DNA from: Bacteroidales bacterium
GTDB taxonomy: Bacteria; Bacteroidota; Bacteroidia; Bacteroidales; Paludibacteraceae
Length of the DNA: 64,000 bases
NCBI GenBank assembly: GCA_004557405.1
Contig: SFDZ01000009.1
Span: 15,014 to 79,013, forward strand
Reading direction: 5' to 3'
Part shown: positions 10,745 to 38,863 of the stretch, one piece after another
Numbering within the stretch: position 1 is the stretch's first letter
Layout of the letters: each line of letters begins with the position of its first letter
Translations under genes and position numbers: made by a program
Notes under the pieces: model-generated
What the model saw: the letters and a program-made list of their open reading frames with translations, nothing else
Told to the model about the DNA's origin: nothing
Databases searched by the model: none

Positions 10745-11818
10745 ATGGAAAAATTACTAAAAATAGGCATCACGCATGGCGACATTAACGGCGTAGGCTA
10801 CGAAGTGATACTGAAAACTTTGGCCGATCAGCGGGTGTTGGATGTGTGCACGCCGGTTATTTATGGGTCGTCGAAAGCCGTCGGCTATTATAAAAAGGTG
10901 TTGGAATTGGAACACCTGACAGTGAGTGTGGTGAAGTCGGGTAGCGATGCTGTAGCCCACCGCATCAATGTGGTGAACTGTTGCTCCGACGAGTTGAAAA
11001 TCGAGATGGGACAAGCGACTGCCGACAGCGGTTTGAACGCCTTTTTTGCCTTGGATATGGCCACGCTCGATTTGCAAAACGGTGTGATAGATGCCATGGT
11101 AACGGCGCCTATCAACAAAAGTACGATGCCCCAAGATCGTTTTCCCTACACCGGCCATACCGAATATCTGGAAGCAAAAGCCAATCAGAAAGGATTGATG
11201 CTGCTGCTGCACGATGCGTTGCGTGTGGCATTGGTTACCAATCATTTGGCATTGAAAGATGTGGCGGCCAACATCACCGAAGAGCGCATTCTGACGAAAC
11301 TGCATATTCTGCAAAAATCGTTGCGTGTCGACTTTGGCATCCGCACACCGCGCATTGCCGTGTTGGCGCTGAATCCGCATGCCGGCGACAATGGGTTGTT
11401 TGGGCGCGAGGAGACCGAAATCATTGCGCCTGCCATTCAGAAAGCCAACGAACGCGGCATTTTGTGCTTTGGCCCGTTTGCTGCCGATGGCTTTTGGGGG
11501 TCGTCGAGCGTGACGAAGTTTGACGCCGTTTTGGCGATGTATCACGACCAAGGGTTGGCACCGTTTAAGGCCATGTATATGGGCGAAGGAGTTAACTTTA
11601 CGGCCGGATTGCCATTTGTGCGTACCTCGCCCGACCACGGCACGGCTTACGAGTTGGCCGGCAAGAACAAAGCCGATGAATCGTCGTTGCGTCAGGCGGT
11701 GTACATGGCGGTCGATATTGTGAAACAGCGCGCGCAAGAGGCCGCATTTGCTGCGAATCCGTTGGTGATTGACGAAAAAATGTTCGCCGATAAGAAAAAA
11801 AATCGCGAAAATGCGTGA
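10745..11818 (+). CDS. pdxA: 4-hydroxythreonine-4-phosphate dehydrogenase PdxA
   Basis: 357 aa. GITHGDINGVGYEVILK, TGHTEYL, LNPHAGDNG, MYHDQGLAPFK, RTSPDHGTAYE. Confidence 0.9.
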   Translation: MEKLLKIGITHGDINGVGYEVILKTLADQRVLDVCTPVIYGSSKAVGYYKKVLELEHLTVSVVKSGSDAVAHRINVVNCCSDELKIEMGQATADSGLNAFFALDMATLDLQNGVIDAMVTAPINKSTMPQDRFPYTGHTEYLEAKANQKGLMLLLHDALRVALVTNHLALKDVAANITEERILTKLHILQKSLRVDFGIRTPRIAVLALNPHAGDNGLFGREETEIIAPAIQKANERGILCFGPFAADGFWGSSSVTKFDAVLAMYHDQGLAPFKAMYMGEGVNFTAGLPFVRTSPDHGTAYELAGKNKADESSLRQAVYMAVDIVKQRAQEAAFAANPLVIDEKMFADKKKNRENA

Positions 11819-11836
11819 TAGTTCAAAAAAAAGTTG

Positions 11837-11844
11837 TACTTTTG
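11837..11844 (+). promoter_or_regulatory. Candidate -7 box (TACTTTTG) for the trp leader / trpB2 transcript
   Basis: Exact TAnnTTTG match 33 nt upstream of the leader ATG (11877). Confidence 0.4.
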
Positions 11845-11876
11845 CAGCGTCAAAACAGAAATAATTTGATAGAAGT

Positions 11877-11921
11877 ATGATTCAGACGACAAATTTTTGG
11901 TGGTGGCAACCGTTCTTGTAG
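11877..11921 (+). CDS. Trp-rich leader peptide MIQTTNFWWWQPFL (transcription attenuation leader)
   Basis: Below the ORF-track size cutoff. ATG 11877 ... TGG TGG TGG (11898-11906) ... TAG 11919-11921. It sits between a promoter box and an intrinsic terminator, upstream of a tryptophan synthase beta paralogue. Confidence 0.6.
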   Translation: MIQTTNFWWWQPFL

Positions 11922-11978
11922 CAAGGAGGGGCACACGTCGTATTTGTCGTTGTATAAACAAAGTGAAATGAAACGAAA

Positions 11979-12012
11979 GTCGTAGGAACCCTCCTGCGAC
12001 TTTTTATTTTTT
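11979..12012 (+). terminator. Attenuator terminator upstream of trpB2, with a competing antiterminator arm at 11924-11930
   Basis: 9-bp stem GTCGTAGGA (11979-11987) / TCCTGCGAC (11992-12000), loop ACCC, then TTTTTATTTTTT (12001-12012). AGGAGGG (11924-11930, 3 nt after the leader stop) is complementary to CCCTCCT (11989-11995), which spans the loop and the 3' arm. Confidence 0.65.
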
Positions 12013-12058
12013 GGAGAGTGTAATCACATTGTATTTATAACCTAAAACAACAAAAACT

Positions 12059-13420
12059 ATGAAAGTAACAAAAAAAATTGTATTGTCGGAACATGATATG
12101 CCGACTCAGTGGTACAACATTGTGGCCGATATGCCCACAAAGCCGCTGCCGATGTTGCATCCGGCTACCAAGCAACCGATTAAACCGGAAGAGATGGAAG
12201 GTTTGTTTGCCAAAGCGTTGGTAGAACAGGAGTTTTCGCAAGAGCGTTACATCGACATTCCCGACGAGGTGCGCGACTTGTATCGCATCTATCGTCCGAC
12301 GCCGTTGGTGCGTGCTTCGGGGTTGGAAAAAGCGCTCGACACACCGGCCAAAATCTATTTCAAAAACGAGAGTGTCAGTCCCGTAGGGTCGCACAAACTC
12401 AATTCGGCCATTCCGCAGGCCTATTTCAATAAGATTCAAGGTATAAAGCACATGACGACGGAAACCGGCGCCGGTCAGTGGGGCTCGGCGTTGAGTATTG
12501 CGTGCAAACATTTCGGGCTCGACCTGAAGGTTTATATGGTGAAAATCAGTTACAATCAAAAGCCGTATCGCAAGTCGGTGATGCAAACCTATGGCGCACA
12601 AGTCATTGCCTCGCCGAGCGATACCACCGAAGTGGGGCGGCGCATGTTGGCCGAATATCCCGGTACGGCCGGTAGTTTGGGCATGGCTATTTCCGAGGCG
12701 GTAGAGGTGGCAATGACGCAACCCGACACACGCTACGGTCTTGGCAGTGTGCTGAATCATGTCATTTTGCATCAAACGATTATCGGTCAGGAGGCCAAGA
12801 AGCAGATGGAGATAGCCGGCGATTATCCCGATGTGGTGATAGGCTGTTTTGGTGGCGGCTCGAATTTTTGCGGCATCTCGTTCCCGTTCTTGCGCGACAA
12901 TTTTGTCGAGGGTAAGAAAACGCGCTTCATTGCTGCCGAGCCGGCTTCGTGTCCGAAACTGACGCGTGGTAAATTTGAATACGATTTTGGCGATTCCGAA
13001 GGTTTTACGCCGTTGTTGCCGATGTTTACGCTGGGGCACGACTTCGAGCCGGCATCGATTCATGCGGGCGGTTTGCGTTATCACGGAGCGGGCACCATTG
13101 TGAGCCAGTTGCTCAAAGACAACCTGATAGAGGCCACTGATGTCAATCAACTCGACTCGTTCAAAGCGGGCGTACTCTTTGCTCAGGCCGAAGGCATTAT
13201 TCCGGCGCCGGAATCGACGCACGCCATCGCAGCGGCCATTCGCGAGGCGTTGAAAGCCAAAGAAGAGGGTTCGGAGAAGGTCATTTTGTTCAATCTGTCG
13301 GGGCATGGCTTGATTGACATGGCTTCGTATGACCGTTATTTTGCCGGCGAATTGCAAAATTATGCCGTCAGCGACGAAGAAATCGCGCGAAATGTTGCCA
13401 AATTGGAGAAATTAGCGTGA
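12059..13420 (+). CDS. TrpB-like PLP-dependent enzyme (TrpB2-type tryptophan synthase beta chain)
   Basis: 453 aa. The length and the N-terminal extension (PTQWYNIVADMPTKPLP) are typical of TrpB2. PLP-lysine region SVSPVGSHKLNSA; GGGSNF; no adjacent trpA. Confidence 0.85.
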   Translation: MKVTKKIVLSEHDMPTQWYNIVADMPTKPLPMLHPATKQPIKPEEMEGLFAKALVEQEFSQERYIDIPDEVRDLYRIYRPTPLVRASGLEKALDTPAKIYFKNESVSPVGSHKLNSAIPQAYFNKIQGIKHMTTETGAGQWGSALSIACKHFGLDLKVYMVKISYNQKPYRKSVMQTYGAQVIASPSDTTEVGRRMLAEYPGTAGSLGMAISEAVEVAMTQPDTRYGLGSVLNHVILHQTIIGQEAKKQMEIAGDYPDVVIGCFGGGSNFCGISFPFLRDNFVEGKKTRFIAAEPASCPKLTRGKFEYDFGDSEGFTPLLPMFTLGHDFEPASIHAGGLRYHGAGTIVSQLLKDNLIEATDVNQLDSFKAGVLFAQAEGIIPAPESTHAIAAAIREALKAKEEGSEKVILFNLSGHGLIDMASYDRYFAGELQNYAVSDEEIARNVAKLEKLA

Positions 13421-13446
13421 TTGTTTTTTGTGCATCACACAGGCAG

Positions 13447-13484
13447 GCGTCGGGAAACCGGCGCTTGTCGTTTTTTTTTTTTTT
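13447..13484 (+). terminator. Candidate intrinsic terminator after trpB2
   Basis: 7-bp stem GCGTCGG / CCGGCGC with a GAAA loop (13447-13464), then TTGTCG and a T14 run (13471-13484). Confidence 0.5.
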
Positions 13485-13570: not shown

Positions 13571-14875
13571 ATGAATAGCGAAACAGTGGCATATATCGTT
13601 CGTTTCTTGCTGCATGGCAACGATGCTTTGGCGCGGCGTGTGGGTTATACGTCCGACGCGACACTGTTCGGGCATTATTCGGTGGTGGTGGTGCCGTCGC
13701 AGTTCTGGAACGATGGCATTTTTGGCACGCTGCGTGCCGAACCGGCGTTGCCATTGTCCGAGATTGATGGCGTGCCATTGCTTTTCGGTGCGCCGCACGT
13801 GGAGCGGCTGGGCGATACCATAGTTGTTTATGCCGATATTGTGGCGAGCGCATTTTTCCTGCTTTCGCGTTACGAAGAGTGGTTGCATCCGCACGACTTG
13901 CGCGATGTGCACGGACGCTTTGTCGGGCGTCATTCGTTGGCGGCTCGTGCCGGTTTCATTCATCGGCCGATAGTCGATGAGTATGGCGCGTTGTTGCGCA
14001 AATGGTTGCGCGATGCCGGGTGCGCAGTGCGTGAATCGGCTCCAGGTTTCGAGGCTGTCTATCTCACGCACGATGTCGATACGATTGCGTTTTATCGCCA
14101 TGTGCGCGGTTTTTTAGGTGGCATTAAACGGGCTCTTTTCGGACACAATGTGCGCCTTGCCGATGTGTTGCGTGCACAGAAATCGTTGCAGCACGATGCA
14201 GCCTATACGTTTCCTTGGTTGATGGCGCAAGATGCGAGGGTGCCACAAGCGCATGTGATTTATTTTTTCAAAGCTGCAGTCGAAACCGACCGATTCGATT
14301 ATCCGCAATACAATTTGCGTGGTGGCGATGCGCGGCAACTTTTTGTGTTTTTGCGGGATAATGGTTGCGAAATCGGTTTGCATGCAAGTTATTTTTCGGG
14401 CACGCAGCCGGCTGTCATTCCCGATGAACTGCAGAAATTGCAGGAGGCGTTGCAACAGCCGGTAACGGCCAATCGTTGGCACTATTTGCGCACGTTGCAG
14501 CCTGCCGACTTCGGGGCGTTGGTGCAAGCCGGCATCACCGACGATTTTACGATGGGTTATGCCGATGTGGCCGGATTTCGGCTTGGAACGTGTCGTGCCG
14601 TGCGTTGGATTGATGCACAAACCGGCACAGTAACGCCGTTGGTGTTGCATCCACTCATGGTCATGGACTGCACTCTGAGCAACGTCAACTATATGAACCT
14701 CCAAACAGAGGGCGAAGCGTTGGATTATGTCGAAGCATTGTTGTCCGAGGTACAAAAACATCGTGGCGAAGCGGTGTTGCTATGGCATAATAGCAACGTT
14801 ATAGGTGATTCTTATCATAAGTCGCTTTATGTAAAGTTGTTAAGTTGGTTGCGACATAATACTAAGCACGCATGA
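13571..14875 (+). CDS. Hypothetical protein, possibly a polysaccharide-deacetylase-like (CE4-superfamily) enzyme
   Basis: ORF 13562..14875; I prefer ATG 13571 over TTG 13562. AVYLTHDVDT resembles the deacetylase Asp-Asp motif region. It is followed, with overlapping stops and starts, by two glycosyltransferases. The functional call is weak. Confidence 0.4.
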   Translation: MNSETVAYIVRFLLHGNDALARRVGYTSDATLFGHYSVVVVPSQFWNDGIFGTLRAEPALPLSEIDGVPLLFGAPHVERLGDTIVVYADIVASAFFLLSRYEEWLHPHDLRDVHGRFVGRHSLAARAGFIHRPIVDEYGALLRKWLRDAGCAVRESAPGFEAVYLTHDVDTIAFYRHVRGFLGGIKRALFGHNVRLADVLRAQKSLQHDAAYTFPWLMAQDARVPQAHVIYFFKAAVETDRFDYPQYNLRGGDARQLFVFLRDNGCEIGLHASYFSGTQPAVIPDELQKLQEALQQPVTANRWHYLRTLQPADFGALVQAGITDDFTMGYADVAGFRLGTCRAVRWIDAQTGTVTPLVLHPLMVMDCTLSNVNYMNLQTEGEALDYVEALLSEVQKHRGEAVLLWHNSNVIGDSYHKSLYVKLLSWLRHNTKHA

Positions 14876-36329: not shown

Positions 36330-37232
36330 ATGAAAAAAATAGTCAGTTTGACAATGGCGCTGTTGGGCGCTGTTGTCGTTGCGTATGCGGCTTTGCCCGA
36401 TAAAACCAACCAATTCGTGAACGATTTTGCGGGCGTGTTCGATAGCCGGCAAGCCATGGAGTTGGAGGAGTATCTGGCGACATTCTCCGACACGACAACC
36501 AATCAGGTGGTGGTGGTAACCATCGTCGATTTGGGAGACTACGAACCGGCCGACTATGCGCAACGCCTCGGACAGAAATGGGGTGTCGGCTCGGATAAAG
36601 ATAATGGTGTCATCATTCTGGTGAAACCGCGCAACGAATTTGGCGGAGGCGCTGTCGAAATCAGCACAGGCTACGGGGCCGAAGGCGTTCTGACGGATGC
36701 GCGTTGCGGGCAGATTATCGACAAAGAGATGATGCCGTATTTGCAGCAGGGCGACTATTTCGAGGCGTGCAATGCCGGCGCGCGCGCATGTTGCCGGTTG
36801 TTGTTGGGCGAATACCATGATAATTGGGATAATGATCAGGCCGATGACGATGATCTGTTGTGGATGCTTCTGTGTGTGGCGCTCGTCGTTGCCTGCGTGG
36901 GGTTCTTTGTGTTGAAACCTTCGAAAAAGACGGTCGCCTTGCGCGCTGTGGCAAATGCCGACACGGTGGCCAAACGCGATGCGGCTGTGGCTCGTGCCAA
37001 AGAATTGAAAATCAGCGACGAAAAGATTACTGCGGCGTTGAAAGATGTTCCGAAAAATATGGAACGTCGCCTTTATAATGCATCGACACCGGATGATTTT
37101 GAGAAACTTGCGGCAGCGGCTTTGGCGTTAGGATTGTCGCAGGCGGCGATCGATATGGTGCGTTGGCGTATGCCGGAATATACGTTCAAATTTGTCGGCG
37201 TGCCGGCGTCGTGCGTTGGCGTTTGGCAATAG
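36330..37232 (+). CDS. TPM-domain (YgcG-like) membrane protein, apparently lacking its usual Gly-rich tail in this frame
   Basis: 300 aa. NQFVNDFAGVFDSRQAMELEEYLATFSDTTTNQVVVVTIVDLGDYEPADYAQRLGQKWGVG is a TPM domain. TM helix LLWMLLCVALVVACVGFFVL. The ORF ends 41 nt inside the next ORF, which carries the expected tail in another frame. Confidence 0.75.
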   Translation: MKKIVSLTMALLGAVVVAYAALPDKTNQFVNDFAGVFDSRQAMELEEYLATFSDTTTNQVVVVTIVDLGDYEPADYAQRLGQKWGVGSDKDNGVIILVKPRNEFGGGAVEISTGYGAEGVLTDARCGQIIDKEMMPYLQQGDYFEACNAGARACCRLLLGEYHDNWDNDQADDDDLLWMLLCVALVVACVGFFVLKPSKKTVALRAVANADTVAKRDAAVARAKELKISDEKITAALKDVPKNMERRLYNASTPDDFEKLAAAALALGLSQAAIDMVRWRMPEYTFKFVGVPASCVGVWQ

Positions 37233-37465: not shown

Positions 37466-38863
37466 TCAGTCGAAAAATTGGTCGCTGAAATTGATAAAAA
37501 ACAGATTTTTCTCGGCGCGTGTGCAGGCGGTGTATAGCCAGCGCAGGTAGTCGGTATCGATTTGTTCGGGCGTGAGTCCGCCTTGGTCGATGAAGACTTC
37601 GCTCCATTGGCCGCCTTGGGCTTTGTGGCAAGTTACGGCATAGCCGAATTTTACTTGTAGTGCATTCAGGTATTCGTTTTGCATCATGGCTTTGTAGCGG
37701 GTGCGTCGATTGCCTATTTCGAGATAATCTTCTTCGACGGCTGCGAATAATTTTTTGGCGAGTTGTTCGGCGGCAGCCGGTGTTTCGGTGTAGAGCGAAT
37801 CGATTAGCAGGCGCGTGTCGATTTCGCAGTCGTAGTCCAAAAACCGAAGTGTAACATCGACAAAGCGCAGTCCGTACATGTCGTGATAGCGTTTGATGCG
37901 TACTAATTCGGCCACATCGCCGTTGGCTATAAATTCGAGGTCGGGATACTCTTTGCTCCAAAAGTAGTTGTTGCGTGTGATGAGCAGCAGGTCGCCGGCC
38001 GAGAGTTCGTCCTCTTTGCACATCACTTGGTTGCGTATGCCGCGGTTGTAGAGCACGGCGCGTTTGTTCGAGCGTGTTACTATGATGCAGTTTTCTACGC
38101 CCGATCGGCTGTATGCGCTTTGTATTTCGTCGATAAGTTCGGCGCCGGTGATGCGGTGCACATCCGGGAAGTTGTGGTTGAGTGTGAGTGCGCGGCCGGC
38201 TTGTGTCAGCACGTGTCGTATGGTGGTGGCGTTGTACAGAATGCCGCTGTCGGCCGATTGTCGCGCCACTTCGGTCAGTTCGGCGGTTGTAACATCGAGT
38301 CCGTAGCGTTCGAGGTTGTGCCGGTCGAGTGCGGGCGAGAATGGTTGCATGACGGGCGGTAGTTGTGCCGTGTCGCCGATGAGAATCAGTCGGCAGTTGT
38401 CGCCGGTATAGACAAATTCGATGAGGTCATCGAGCAGTCGGCCGGAGCCGAACGTGGTGCCTTCGGTTGGTGTGTTCGATACCATCGATGCTTCGTCGAC
38501 AAGGAACAGCGTGTCGCGTGCGTTGTTGTAGTTGAGCGTAAATTCGTTGGAGGCCGTTTTTTGTCGATAGATGCGTTTGTGAATCGAGTAGGCGGGCTGT
38601 TGTGCGTAGTTGCTAAATACTTTGGCGGCACGTCCGGTGGGTGCGAGCAGCACGGTTTTTTGGTTCAACGCATGCAGCGCGCCCACCAAAGCACTCACTA
38701 CCGATGTTTTGCCGGTGCCGGCGTAGCCTGTCAGCAAAAAGGCGTGTTGCGACCTATCGGACATGCAGAATTCGGCCAACGCATCGATGGCCGTCTGTTG
38801 TTCGGCAGTCGGCTCGAAAGGCAGTTGCGCGCTGATTTTGCGTGTCAGAAAATTTTGTATCAC
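37466..38863 (-). CDS. RecD/Pif1-like SF1 DNA helicase (AAA_30 + UvrD_C-type)
   Basis: 465 aa. LLTGYAGTGKTSV (Walker A), LFLVDEASMV (Walker B), YAVTCHKAQGGQWSEVFI (motif VI region). Confidence 0.8.
   Translation of the reverse strand: MIQNFLTRKISAQLPFEPTAEQQTAIDALAEFCMSDRSQHAFLLTGYAGTGKTSVVSALVGALHALNQKTVLLAPTGRAAKVFSNYAQQPAYSIHKRIYRQKTASNEFTLNYNNARDTLFLVDEASMVSNTPTEGTTFGSGRLLDDLIEFVYTGDNCRLILIGDTAQLPPVMQPFSPALDRHNLERYGLDVTTAELTEVARQSADSGILYNATTIRHVLTQAGRALTLNHNFPDVHRITGAELIDEIQSAYSRSGVENCIIVTRSNKRAVLYNRGIRNQVMCKEDELSAGDLLLITRNNYFWSKEYPDLEFIANGDVAELVRIKRYHDMYGLRFVDVTLRFLDYDCEIDTRLLIDSLYTETPAAAEQLAKKLFAAVEEDYLEIGNRRTRYKAMMQNEYLNALQVKFGYAVTCHKAQGGQWSEVFIDQGGLTPEQIDTDYLRWLYTACTRAEKNLFFINFSDQFFD

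Follow-up and report, generated by a model that had tools for sequence, protein, structure and literature searches.

A putative ribosome-mediated attenuator of the Bacteroid-trp class in front of a stand-alone trpB2 gene in a Bacteroidales genome

The Bacteroid-trp leader motif (Weinberg et al. 2010, Genome Biol 11:R31, PMC2864571, Additional file 1), which corresponds to Rfam family RF01692, was presented in that file as a motif of Bacteroidetes that 'controls trpB and trpE genes' and is presumed to be a peptide leader. By the definition given there, two or more UGG codons are conserved within a hairpin that is itself conserved only loosely (PMC2864571). The attenuation principle itself is not new, as Trp leader peptides before trpB/trpE in Bacteroidetes were described in 2010 (PMC2864571). 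The leader analysed here precedes a stand-alone trpB2 gene in the window (the whole stretch of DNA that was analysed, 64,000 nucleotides) and is a divergent member of this known and widespread class, which the current Rfam model captures in part. The descriptive definition of RF01692 applied to it, with the UGG codons lying in a hairpin at 11885-11951 in the same layout as the RF01692 consensus. Judged from its sequence and from modelled folds, the leader is with good confidence a ribosome-mediated, trpL-type transcription attenuator of the Bacteroid-trp class that controls a monocistronic trpB2, and the switch very probably turns this gene on when tryptophan is short. The elements of the locus were as follows.

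10745-11818: pdxA (TIGR00557, 369 bits, profile match)
11837-11844, + strand: candidate -7 promoter box TACTTTTG of Bacteroidota type (TAnnTTTG), read from the sequence, 32 nt 5' of the leader ATG
11877-11921, + strand: leader ORF of 14 codons, MIQTTNFWWWQPFL and a stop, with TGG x3 at 11898-11906 and TAG at 11919-11921
11885-11951, + strand: P1 or anti-antiterminator hairpin in the MFE and centroid folds, outer stem 11885-11894 with 11942-11951
11910-11918 with 11922-11930, + strand: inner 1:2 hairpin of P1, which buries AGGAGGG
11921-11939, + strand: predicted 5' strand of the antiterminator (region 2), with the core AGGAGGG at 11924-11930 plus CACG.C at 11934-11939
11975-12012, + strand: intrinsic terminator with a 13-bp stem (11975-11987 / 11992-12004), a 4-nt loop (11988-11991) and the U-run TTTTTATTTTTT to 12012
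12059-13420, + strand: trpB2 (TrpB-like PLP enzyme, 453 aa), ATG at 12059, the gene presumably regulated
13442-13479, + strand: terminator 3' of trpB2, a 12-bp stem plus T9

The leader lies in a spacer of 240 nt between the pdxA stop (11818) and trpB2, and its ORF reads ATG ATT CAG ACG ACA AAT TTT TGG TGG TGG CAA CCG TTC TTG TAG. The positions which the preliminary description had assigned to the promoter box, the leader ORF, its three TGG codons and the trpB2 start held on reading of the sequence, as did the length of the spacer and the exact complementarity of AGGAGGG (11924-11930) to CCCTCCT (11989-11995). AGGAGGG begins 2 nt past the end of the leader stop codon. The strong terminator with a U-run to 12012 was recovered with a stem of 13 bp (11975-12004), compared to which the 9-bp stem first given (11979-12000) was too short. 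The gene product was placed above the equivalog cut-offs of both TrpB2 profiles, NF009057 (727 bits vs 366) and TIGR01415 (634 bits vs 519). Since a terminator closes trpB2 at 13442-13479, leader and trpB2 form a single-gene transcription unit.

Taken singly, the motifs were weak. TANNTTTG occurred 58 times in the window against 43 expected, and TGGTGGTGG four times against 0.41 expected from shuffles; the three other copies of the latter 9-mer (13683-13691, 36508-36516 and 38221-38229) all fell within long ORFs. Single motifs not being rare in the window, the case rests on the ordered arrangement of the elements and on its conservation, neither of which is due to chance.

The free leader RNA (11850-12015, 166 nt; z = -3.2 against shuffles) folded into two elements, the long hairpin 11885-11951 with the Trp codons in its 5' arm, and the terminator. 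In the inner hairpin the codons behind the WWW run (11910-11918) were paired with CAAGGAGG (11922-11930), so that AGGAGGG is sequestered in the resting state, as by a classical 1:2 anti-antiterminator. P1 together with the terminator reached -43.4 kcal/mol, which was 12.4 kcal/mol better than any fold in which the antiterminator was forced. A ribosome on WWW was modelled by masking the nucleotides up to 11916 and folding transcript prefixes, with assumed footprint lengths of +12 to +15 nt borrowed from other bacteria. Under this mask the antiterminator was the MFE of every prefix ending at 11992-12000 (-11.4 to -22.4 kcal/mol); 11921-11930 paired with 11989-11997, CACG.C (11934-11939) paired with the terminator 5' arm at 11979-11985, and the antiterminator target inside the terminator was 11979-11997. 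The duplex of region 2 with the terminator region amounted to -21.2 kcal/mol. At full length under the mask, the terminator (-25.8 kcal/mol) stood against the antiterminator (-23.2 kcal/mol) with a gap of 2.6 kcal/mol and won only with its last four U-proximal pairs. As the equilibrium fold of the stalled full-length leader kept the terminator as MFE and the switch was visible only in prefix (co-transcriptional) folds, the switch must be kinetic, and in these models a leader caught in the antiterminator fold can be trapped there kinetically. When the ribosome was modelled at the stop codon, AGGAGGG was covered and the terminator alone formed.

The folds thus bear on what had been proposed for the two ribosome positions. 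That a ribosome stalled on WWW leaves AGGAGGG free for the loop and 3' arm of the terminator agreed with the masked-prefix folds, except that the antiterminator is larger than 7 bp (11921-11939 with 11979-11997) and engages the 5' arm too. That a ribosome at the stop masks AGGAGGG and lets the terminator form was reproduced by the constrained folds, which gave the same outcome without a ribosome, AGGAGGG then being paired with the post-WWW codons. The change between the stalled and the stop state was reproduced by masked-prefix folding in 8 of 15 orthologous leaders; in the other 7 the terminator was kept and no switch was seen. As a separate observation, GTTCTTGT (11912-11919, post-WWW codons) is complementary, with G-U pairs, to GTAGGAAC (11982-11989, terminator 5' arm and loop), a possible extra 1:3 pairing which was used by none of the computed folds.

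The following course of events is proposed. We infer that transcription starts a few nucleotides 3' of the -7 box (11837-11844) and that a ribosome translates the 14-codon leader. With ample charged tRNA-Trp, the ribosome would reach TAG at 11919-11921 and its footprint would lie over AGGAGGG (11924-11930); after its release, this segment would pair with the codons just past WWW (11910-11918). In both Trp-replete cases the 13-bp terminator (11975-12004 plus the U-run) should form and transcription should end before trpB2. With charged tRNA-Trp scarce, the ribosome would stall on TGG TGG TGG and cover region 1, and 11921-11939 would stay free to pair with the emerging 11979-11997, that is, the terminator 5' arm, loop and upper 3' arm. 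The terminator would then be pre-empted by the antiterminator, and RNA polymerase would read into trpB2.

Conservation was examined in the 80 closest trpB2 loci of public genomes, all of the order Bacteroidales. In 14 of these 80 loci, trpB2 was directly preceded by a short ORF and then a terminator, the ORF containing WWW, WW or W.W. A fifteenth leader, from Paludibacter (L017, 2826-2964), was degenerate: it kept the architecture, but its ORF starts with GTG and has just one Trp codon (..FYWRLQL..). Two more Paludibacter loci (L022 and L019) showed a decayed leader 5' of trpB2, a terminator-like hairpin without a W-rich ORF. In a second sample, for which 151 genomes were picked evenly across the order Bacteroidales, a W-run leader plus terminator was found 5' of 23 of the 54 evaluable trpB2 genes. 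The P1 architecture was common to all 15 leaders, as was the hairpin terminator with its U-run. A TAnnTTTG-like box was located 15-48 nt 5' of the leader start in 14 of the 15, and in the remaining leader (L015) the nearest equivalent was AATCTTTG at about -50, which fits the motif less closely. In four loci (L048, L078, L076 and L081) the -7 box ends just 7 nt before the leader ATG, as in TATCTTTGCACTCGG joined to ATG, and because of this short distance the mRNAs on which their leader ORFs are translated may be leaderless or nearly so.

The position of the hairpin 3' of pdxA and on the same strand would also suit a simple terminator of that gene, next to which the WWW mini-ORF would be a chance occurrence and trpB2 unregulated; the three further copies of TGGTGGTGG in the window and the commonness of TANNTTTG point in the same direction. 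This explanation is extremely unlikely. Only the nearest relative has pdxA as the upstream neighbour of the trpB2 leader and the flanking genes differ in the others, so the unit of leader and terminator, which travels with trpB2, belongs to trpB2 and not to pdxA. Moreover, a conserved -7 box separates pdxA from the leader, and leader and terminator co-vary as described below.

The leader peptides varied beyond the W-run (WWWQLFN, WWRFRF, WWWHSQ, WWWRLQLSKVVS, WWRTCSSKL...), and by these sequences the constraint lies on the Trp codons and the RNA alone, not on the rest of the peptide. This bears on the idea of a TnaC-like arrest peptide, which would sense free tryptophan and induce at high Trp. 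The window copy resembles such a peptide in being a short Trp-containing leader with a Pro near its C-terminus (WWWQPFL). With the residues behind the W-run unconserved and nothing but Trp codons and RNA pairings kept, and with high-Trp induction making no sense for a Trp-forming enzyme, there is very little chance that a TnaC-like mechanism operates here.

The pairing partners of region 2 and its target shifted together by lineage, as AGGAGGG/CCCTCCT, GGTGGAT/ATCCACC, CGTGAG/CTCACG, CTGTAAGTC/GACTTACAG and GTAAACAA/TTGTTTAC, the target of the last pair being the terminator 5' arm. For the co-variation test, one representative was taken from each of seven sequence-distinct groups, and own combinations were compared with swapped ones over 5040 permutations. 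The summed 2:3 (leader-terminator) duplex energy of the true combinations ranked 5 of 5040 (8 of 5040 when the groups were represented by a second set of sequences); in the same test for the 1:2 pairing the true combinations ranked 1 of 5040. The z-scores of the 2:3 duplex ranged from -0.8 to -4.2 among the leaders. In nearly all leaders the antiterminator core lay no more than about 12 nt from the leader stop and at least 10 nt past the last Trp codon. RNAalifold on the raw MAFFT alignment yielded no structure, owing to wrong registers, and per-sequence folds with permutations were used instead. In line with the check by orthologue alignment that the preliminary description had called for, Trp codons, terminator and co-varying antiterminator were kept in the orthologous leaders, and its logic of ribosome-mediated trp attenuation is backed by folds and comparison alike. 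Its suggestion that the AGGAGG-like, Shine-Dalgarno-like sequence is meaningful as such did not survive. Other lineages read GGTGGAT, CGTGAG, CTGTAAGTC or GTAAACAA at this place; by this sequence comparison, AGGAGGG is simply the form that region 2 takes in one lineage, and it resembles a Shine-Dalgarno site only incidentally.

A leader ORF that is real could also act at another level, through Rho-dependent polarity or by aiding trpB2 translation (open 5' region, re-initiation). It has been suggested that leader ORFs enhance the translation of genes behind them (PMC4833913), and Bacteroidota are without strong Shine-Dalgarno-led initiation. We regard this as very unlikely, given that all leaders conserve a canonical GC-containing hairpin of 13 bp together with its U-run, that the trpB2 ATG lies 47 nt past the U-run with no pairing of its region to the leader in the MFE, and that the 2:3 co-variation is explained only by an antiterminator.

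The attenuator was not present in every close relative. The sole other sampled genome of the window's family (G058, locus L135, G058:C22:136200-136950) has a trpB2, no trpA match and no leader, with GTACTTTTG about 35 nt 5' of the trpB2 ATG as a plain promoter. As trpB2 of this genome lacks the leader, the attenuator is dispensable and was gained or lost among close kin.

Several other arrangements were noticed during the comparison. Two complete Trp leader-attenuators stand in tandem 5' of a trpE gene (L116, G018:C37, 3148-3264 and 3289-3427), with the peptides MNTNRLNNYWWWQFTYSFYREEGKLS and MNNSNLHIWWWHNSGIKP and one terminator each, and further tandem pairs were seen at G050:C152 (3484-3605/3745-3869) and G132:C8 (97608-97724/97762-97884). 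Another leader, MKNMTNINRWW and a stop, precedes with its terminator a 190-aa glutamine-amidotransferase-like ORF of trpG/pabA type (L117, G028:C6:18099-18233); its genome gave no match to trpA or to trpB2, and the pathway there may be partial or unusual. Rfam matches near trpB2 or trp loci comprised a cobalamin riboswitch about 0.8 kb 3' of trpB2 (L003, 5144-5348), FopS sRNA 5' of trpB2 in Tannerella forsythia (L080, 2533-2614) and a DUF805b RNA near a trpB2/trp locus (L092, 784-822).

The RF01692 model gave no match at E <= 10 on 11500-12400 (gathering threshold 49 bits), and over the window's whole genome its best match lay elsewhere and scored 22.4 bits, below the threshold of 49. As Rfam gives no usable match on the window copy, class membership was shown through its orthologues, and the orthologous trpB2 leader of Dysgonomonas sp. 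520 (L040) passed RF01692 at 49.2 bits vs the threshold of 49. On this same leader, a sub-threshold match to RF04312, the 'trpB motif' known as a riboswitch candidate of Firmicutes/Fusobacteria (PMC11109978), was rejected as a terminator-driven chance match. A regular-expression scan of the genome for WW mini-ORFs was too noisy and was replaced by R1, a covariance model built solely from the 15 trpB2 leaders. Exactly one copy was found with R1 in the window's genome, with no second leader, and matches were obtained in 73 of the 151 order-wide genomes. The best 29 matches of R1 were all W-run mini-ORFs, located before trpB1 (15), trpE (13) and trpB2 (1); weak matches (E > 1e-6) proved to be plain terminators and were rejected as leaders. 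In one batch of 20 of these best leaders, 7 passed RF01692 at 50.7-90.7 bits; 12 of the 20 went undetected by it at E <= 0.01, and the 8 that it scored all precede trpB1. Since RF01692 misses both the window copy and these 12 of 20 related leaders, the family is under-annotated, and a broader covariance model for it would be easy to build.

A different role for the RNA was considered with the Rfam results, namely that a protein- or tRNA-binding element (TRAP-like, T-box or riboswitch) sets the choice of hairpin and the ORF is incidental. T-box or TRAP elements serve trp genes in other phyla. On 11500-12400, however, the whole of Rfam, T-box included, returned chance-level matches only (E > 1), enterobacterial Trp_leader (RF00513) had no match at E <= 10, and the leader itself matched no Rfam family even at E = 1 and held no GAG/UAG repeats. 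Together with the conservation across lineages of an in-frame start, W-run and stop beside the antiterminator strand, this makes a binding RNA highly improbable and favours the translated attenuator.

The genome that carries the window, a small gut-type Bacteroidales genome, is 1.93 Mb in size and 98% complete. No match to trpA, trpB1, indole-3-glycerol-phosphate synthase (IGPS, trpC) or a chorismate-binding enzyme (trpE) was obtained in this 98%-complete genome by searches which found their targets in 14 of 14 control genomes, and TrpB2 was its sole TrpB-family match. With the rest of the trp pathway without a match, the attenuator would control the genome's only Trp-forming enzyme, and for the same reason induced TrpB2 would most likely use imported indole, together with serine or phosphoserine, to make Trp. 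Among the 15 leader-bearing genomes, 10 had no trpA match, the completeness figure of 98% covering the window's genome only. In the order-wide sample (151 genomes), trpB2 was present in 58 genomes, trpA in 55, and trpB2 without a trpA match in 21. Leader and terminator preceded trpB2 in 11 of 19 evaluable trpA-negative and 12 of 35 evaluable trpA-positive genomes, which are related and non-independent; this is a trend only, and no tie between the trpB2 leader and trp-operon loss is claimed.

We incline to the reading that the organism is an indole-dependent 'semi-auxotroph', in which TrpB2, the only Trp former, would be called on when charged tRNA-Trp falls and would turn community-made indole into tryptophan on demand; this lifestyle would be common in the order, with 21 of 151 genomes having trpB2 without a trpA match and at least 11 of these having the leader. 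If true, this would support, from the side of regulation and with relevance in vivo, an idea that is old but poorly tested, namely that TrpB2 enzymes which stand alone are tryptophan synthases for indole salvage. A switch responding to Trp starvation in front of a lone TrpB2, in genomes that lack the rest of the pathway, speaks indirectly for tryptophan formation by TrpB2 in vivo, with indole as the presumable substrate. This is relevant to the exchange of indole and tryptophan by cross-feeding within gut and rumen communities. The leader would also show cleanly, in a natural setting, how Bacteroidota can control a gene through translation of a leader when initiation is not led by a Shine-Dalgarno site. 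The mechanism is a textbook one, and catalogues have listed the class for Bacteroidota since 2010; what the locus offers is of use for annotation and physiology.

Like the described Bacteroid-trp leaders, the window leader lies 5' of a Trp-synthesis gene and has a short ORF, with its UGG codons in the 5' arm of a hairpin, and a terminator behind that hairpin. It differs in that it would regulate a TrpB2 paralogue standing alone and not an operon headed by trpB1 or trpE. In physiology, the nearest parallel is trpRBA of genital Chlamydia trachomatis (PMC7755916, PMC6504234), where the upstream trp pathway is gone, the last enzyme is kept and Trp is made from environmental indole, with expression coupled to Trp availability partly via translation-linked attenuation (PMC7755916, PMC6504234). 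The apparatus differs, as TrpBA works there with TrpR and YtgR, whereas a lone TrpB2 with a leader-peptide terminator switch is found here; compared with the indole rescue of Chlamydia, the salvage role of the window TrpB2 is one that we infer. In mechanism, the computed leader contains the features of the trpL type, namely a tandem-codon ORF, an intrinsic terminator, a 2:3 antiterminator and a 1:2 anti-antiterminator overlapping the coding region. It differs from trpL of E. coli and Salmonella (RF00513) in having no sequence relationship to it, three Trp codons vs two, a region 2 which targets the terminator loop, upper 3' arm and part of the 5' arm, and a Bacteroidota-type promoter without Shine-Dalgarno-led initiation. 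It shares with E. coli and Salmonella trpL the tandem Trp codons, the 1:2, 2:3 and 3:4 pairings, the intrinsic terminator and the position of the stop codon, at which a terminating ribosome would block region 2; as in trpL of E. coli, the switch is kinetic.
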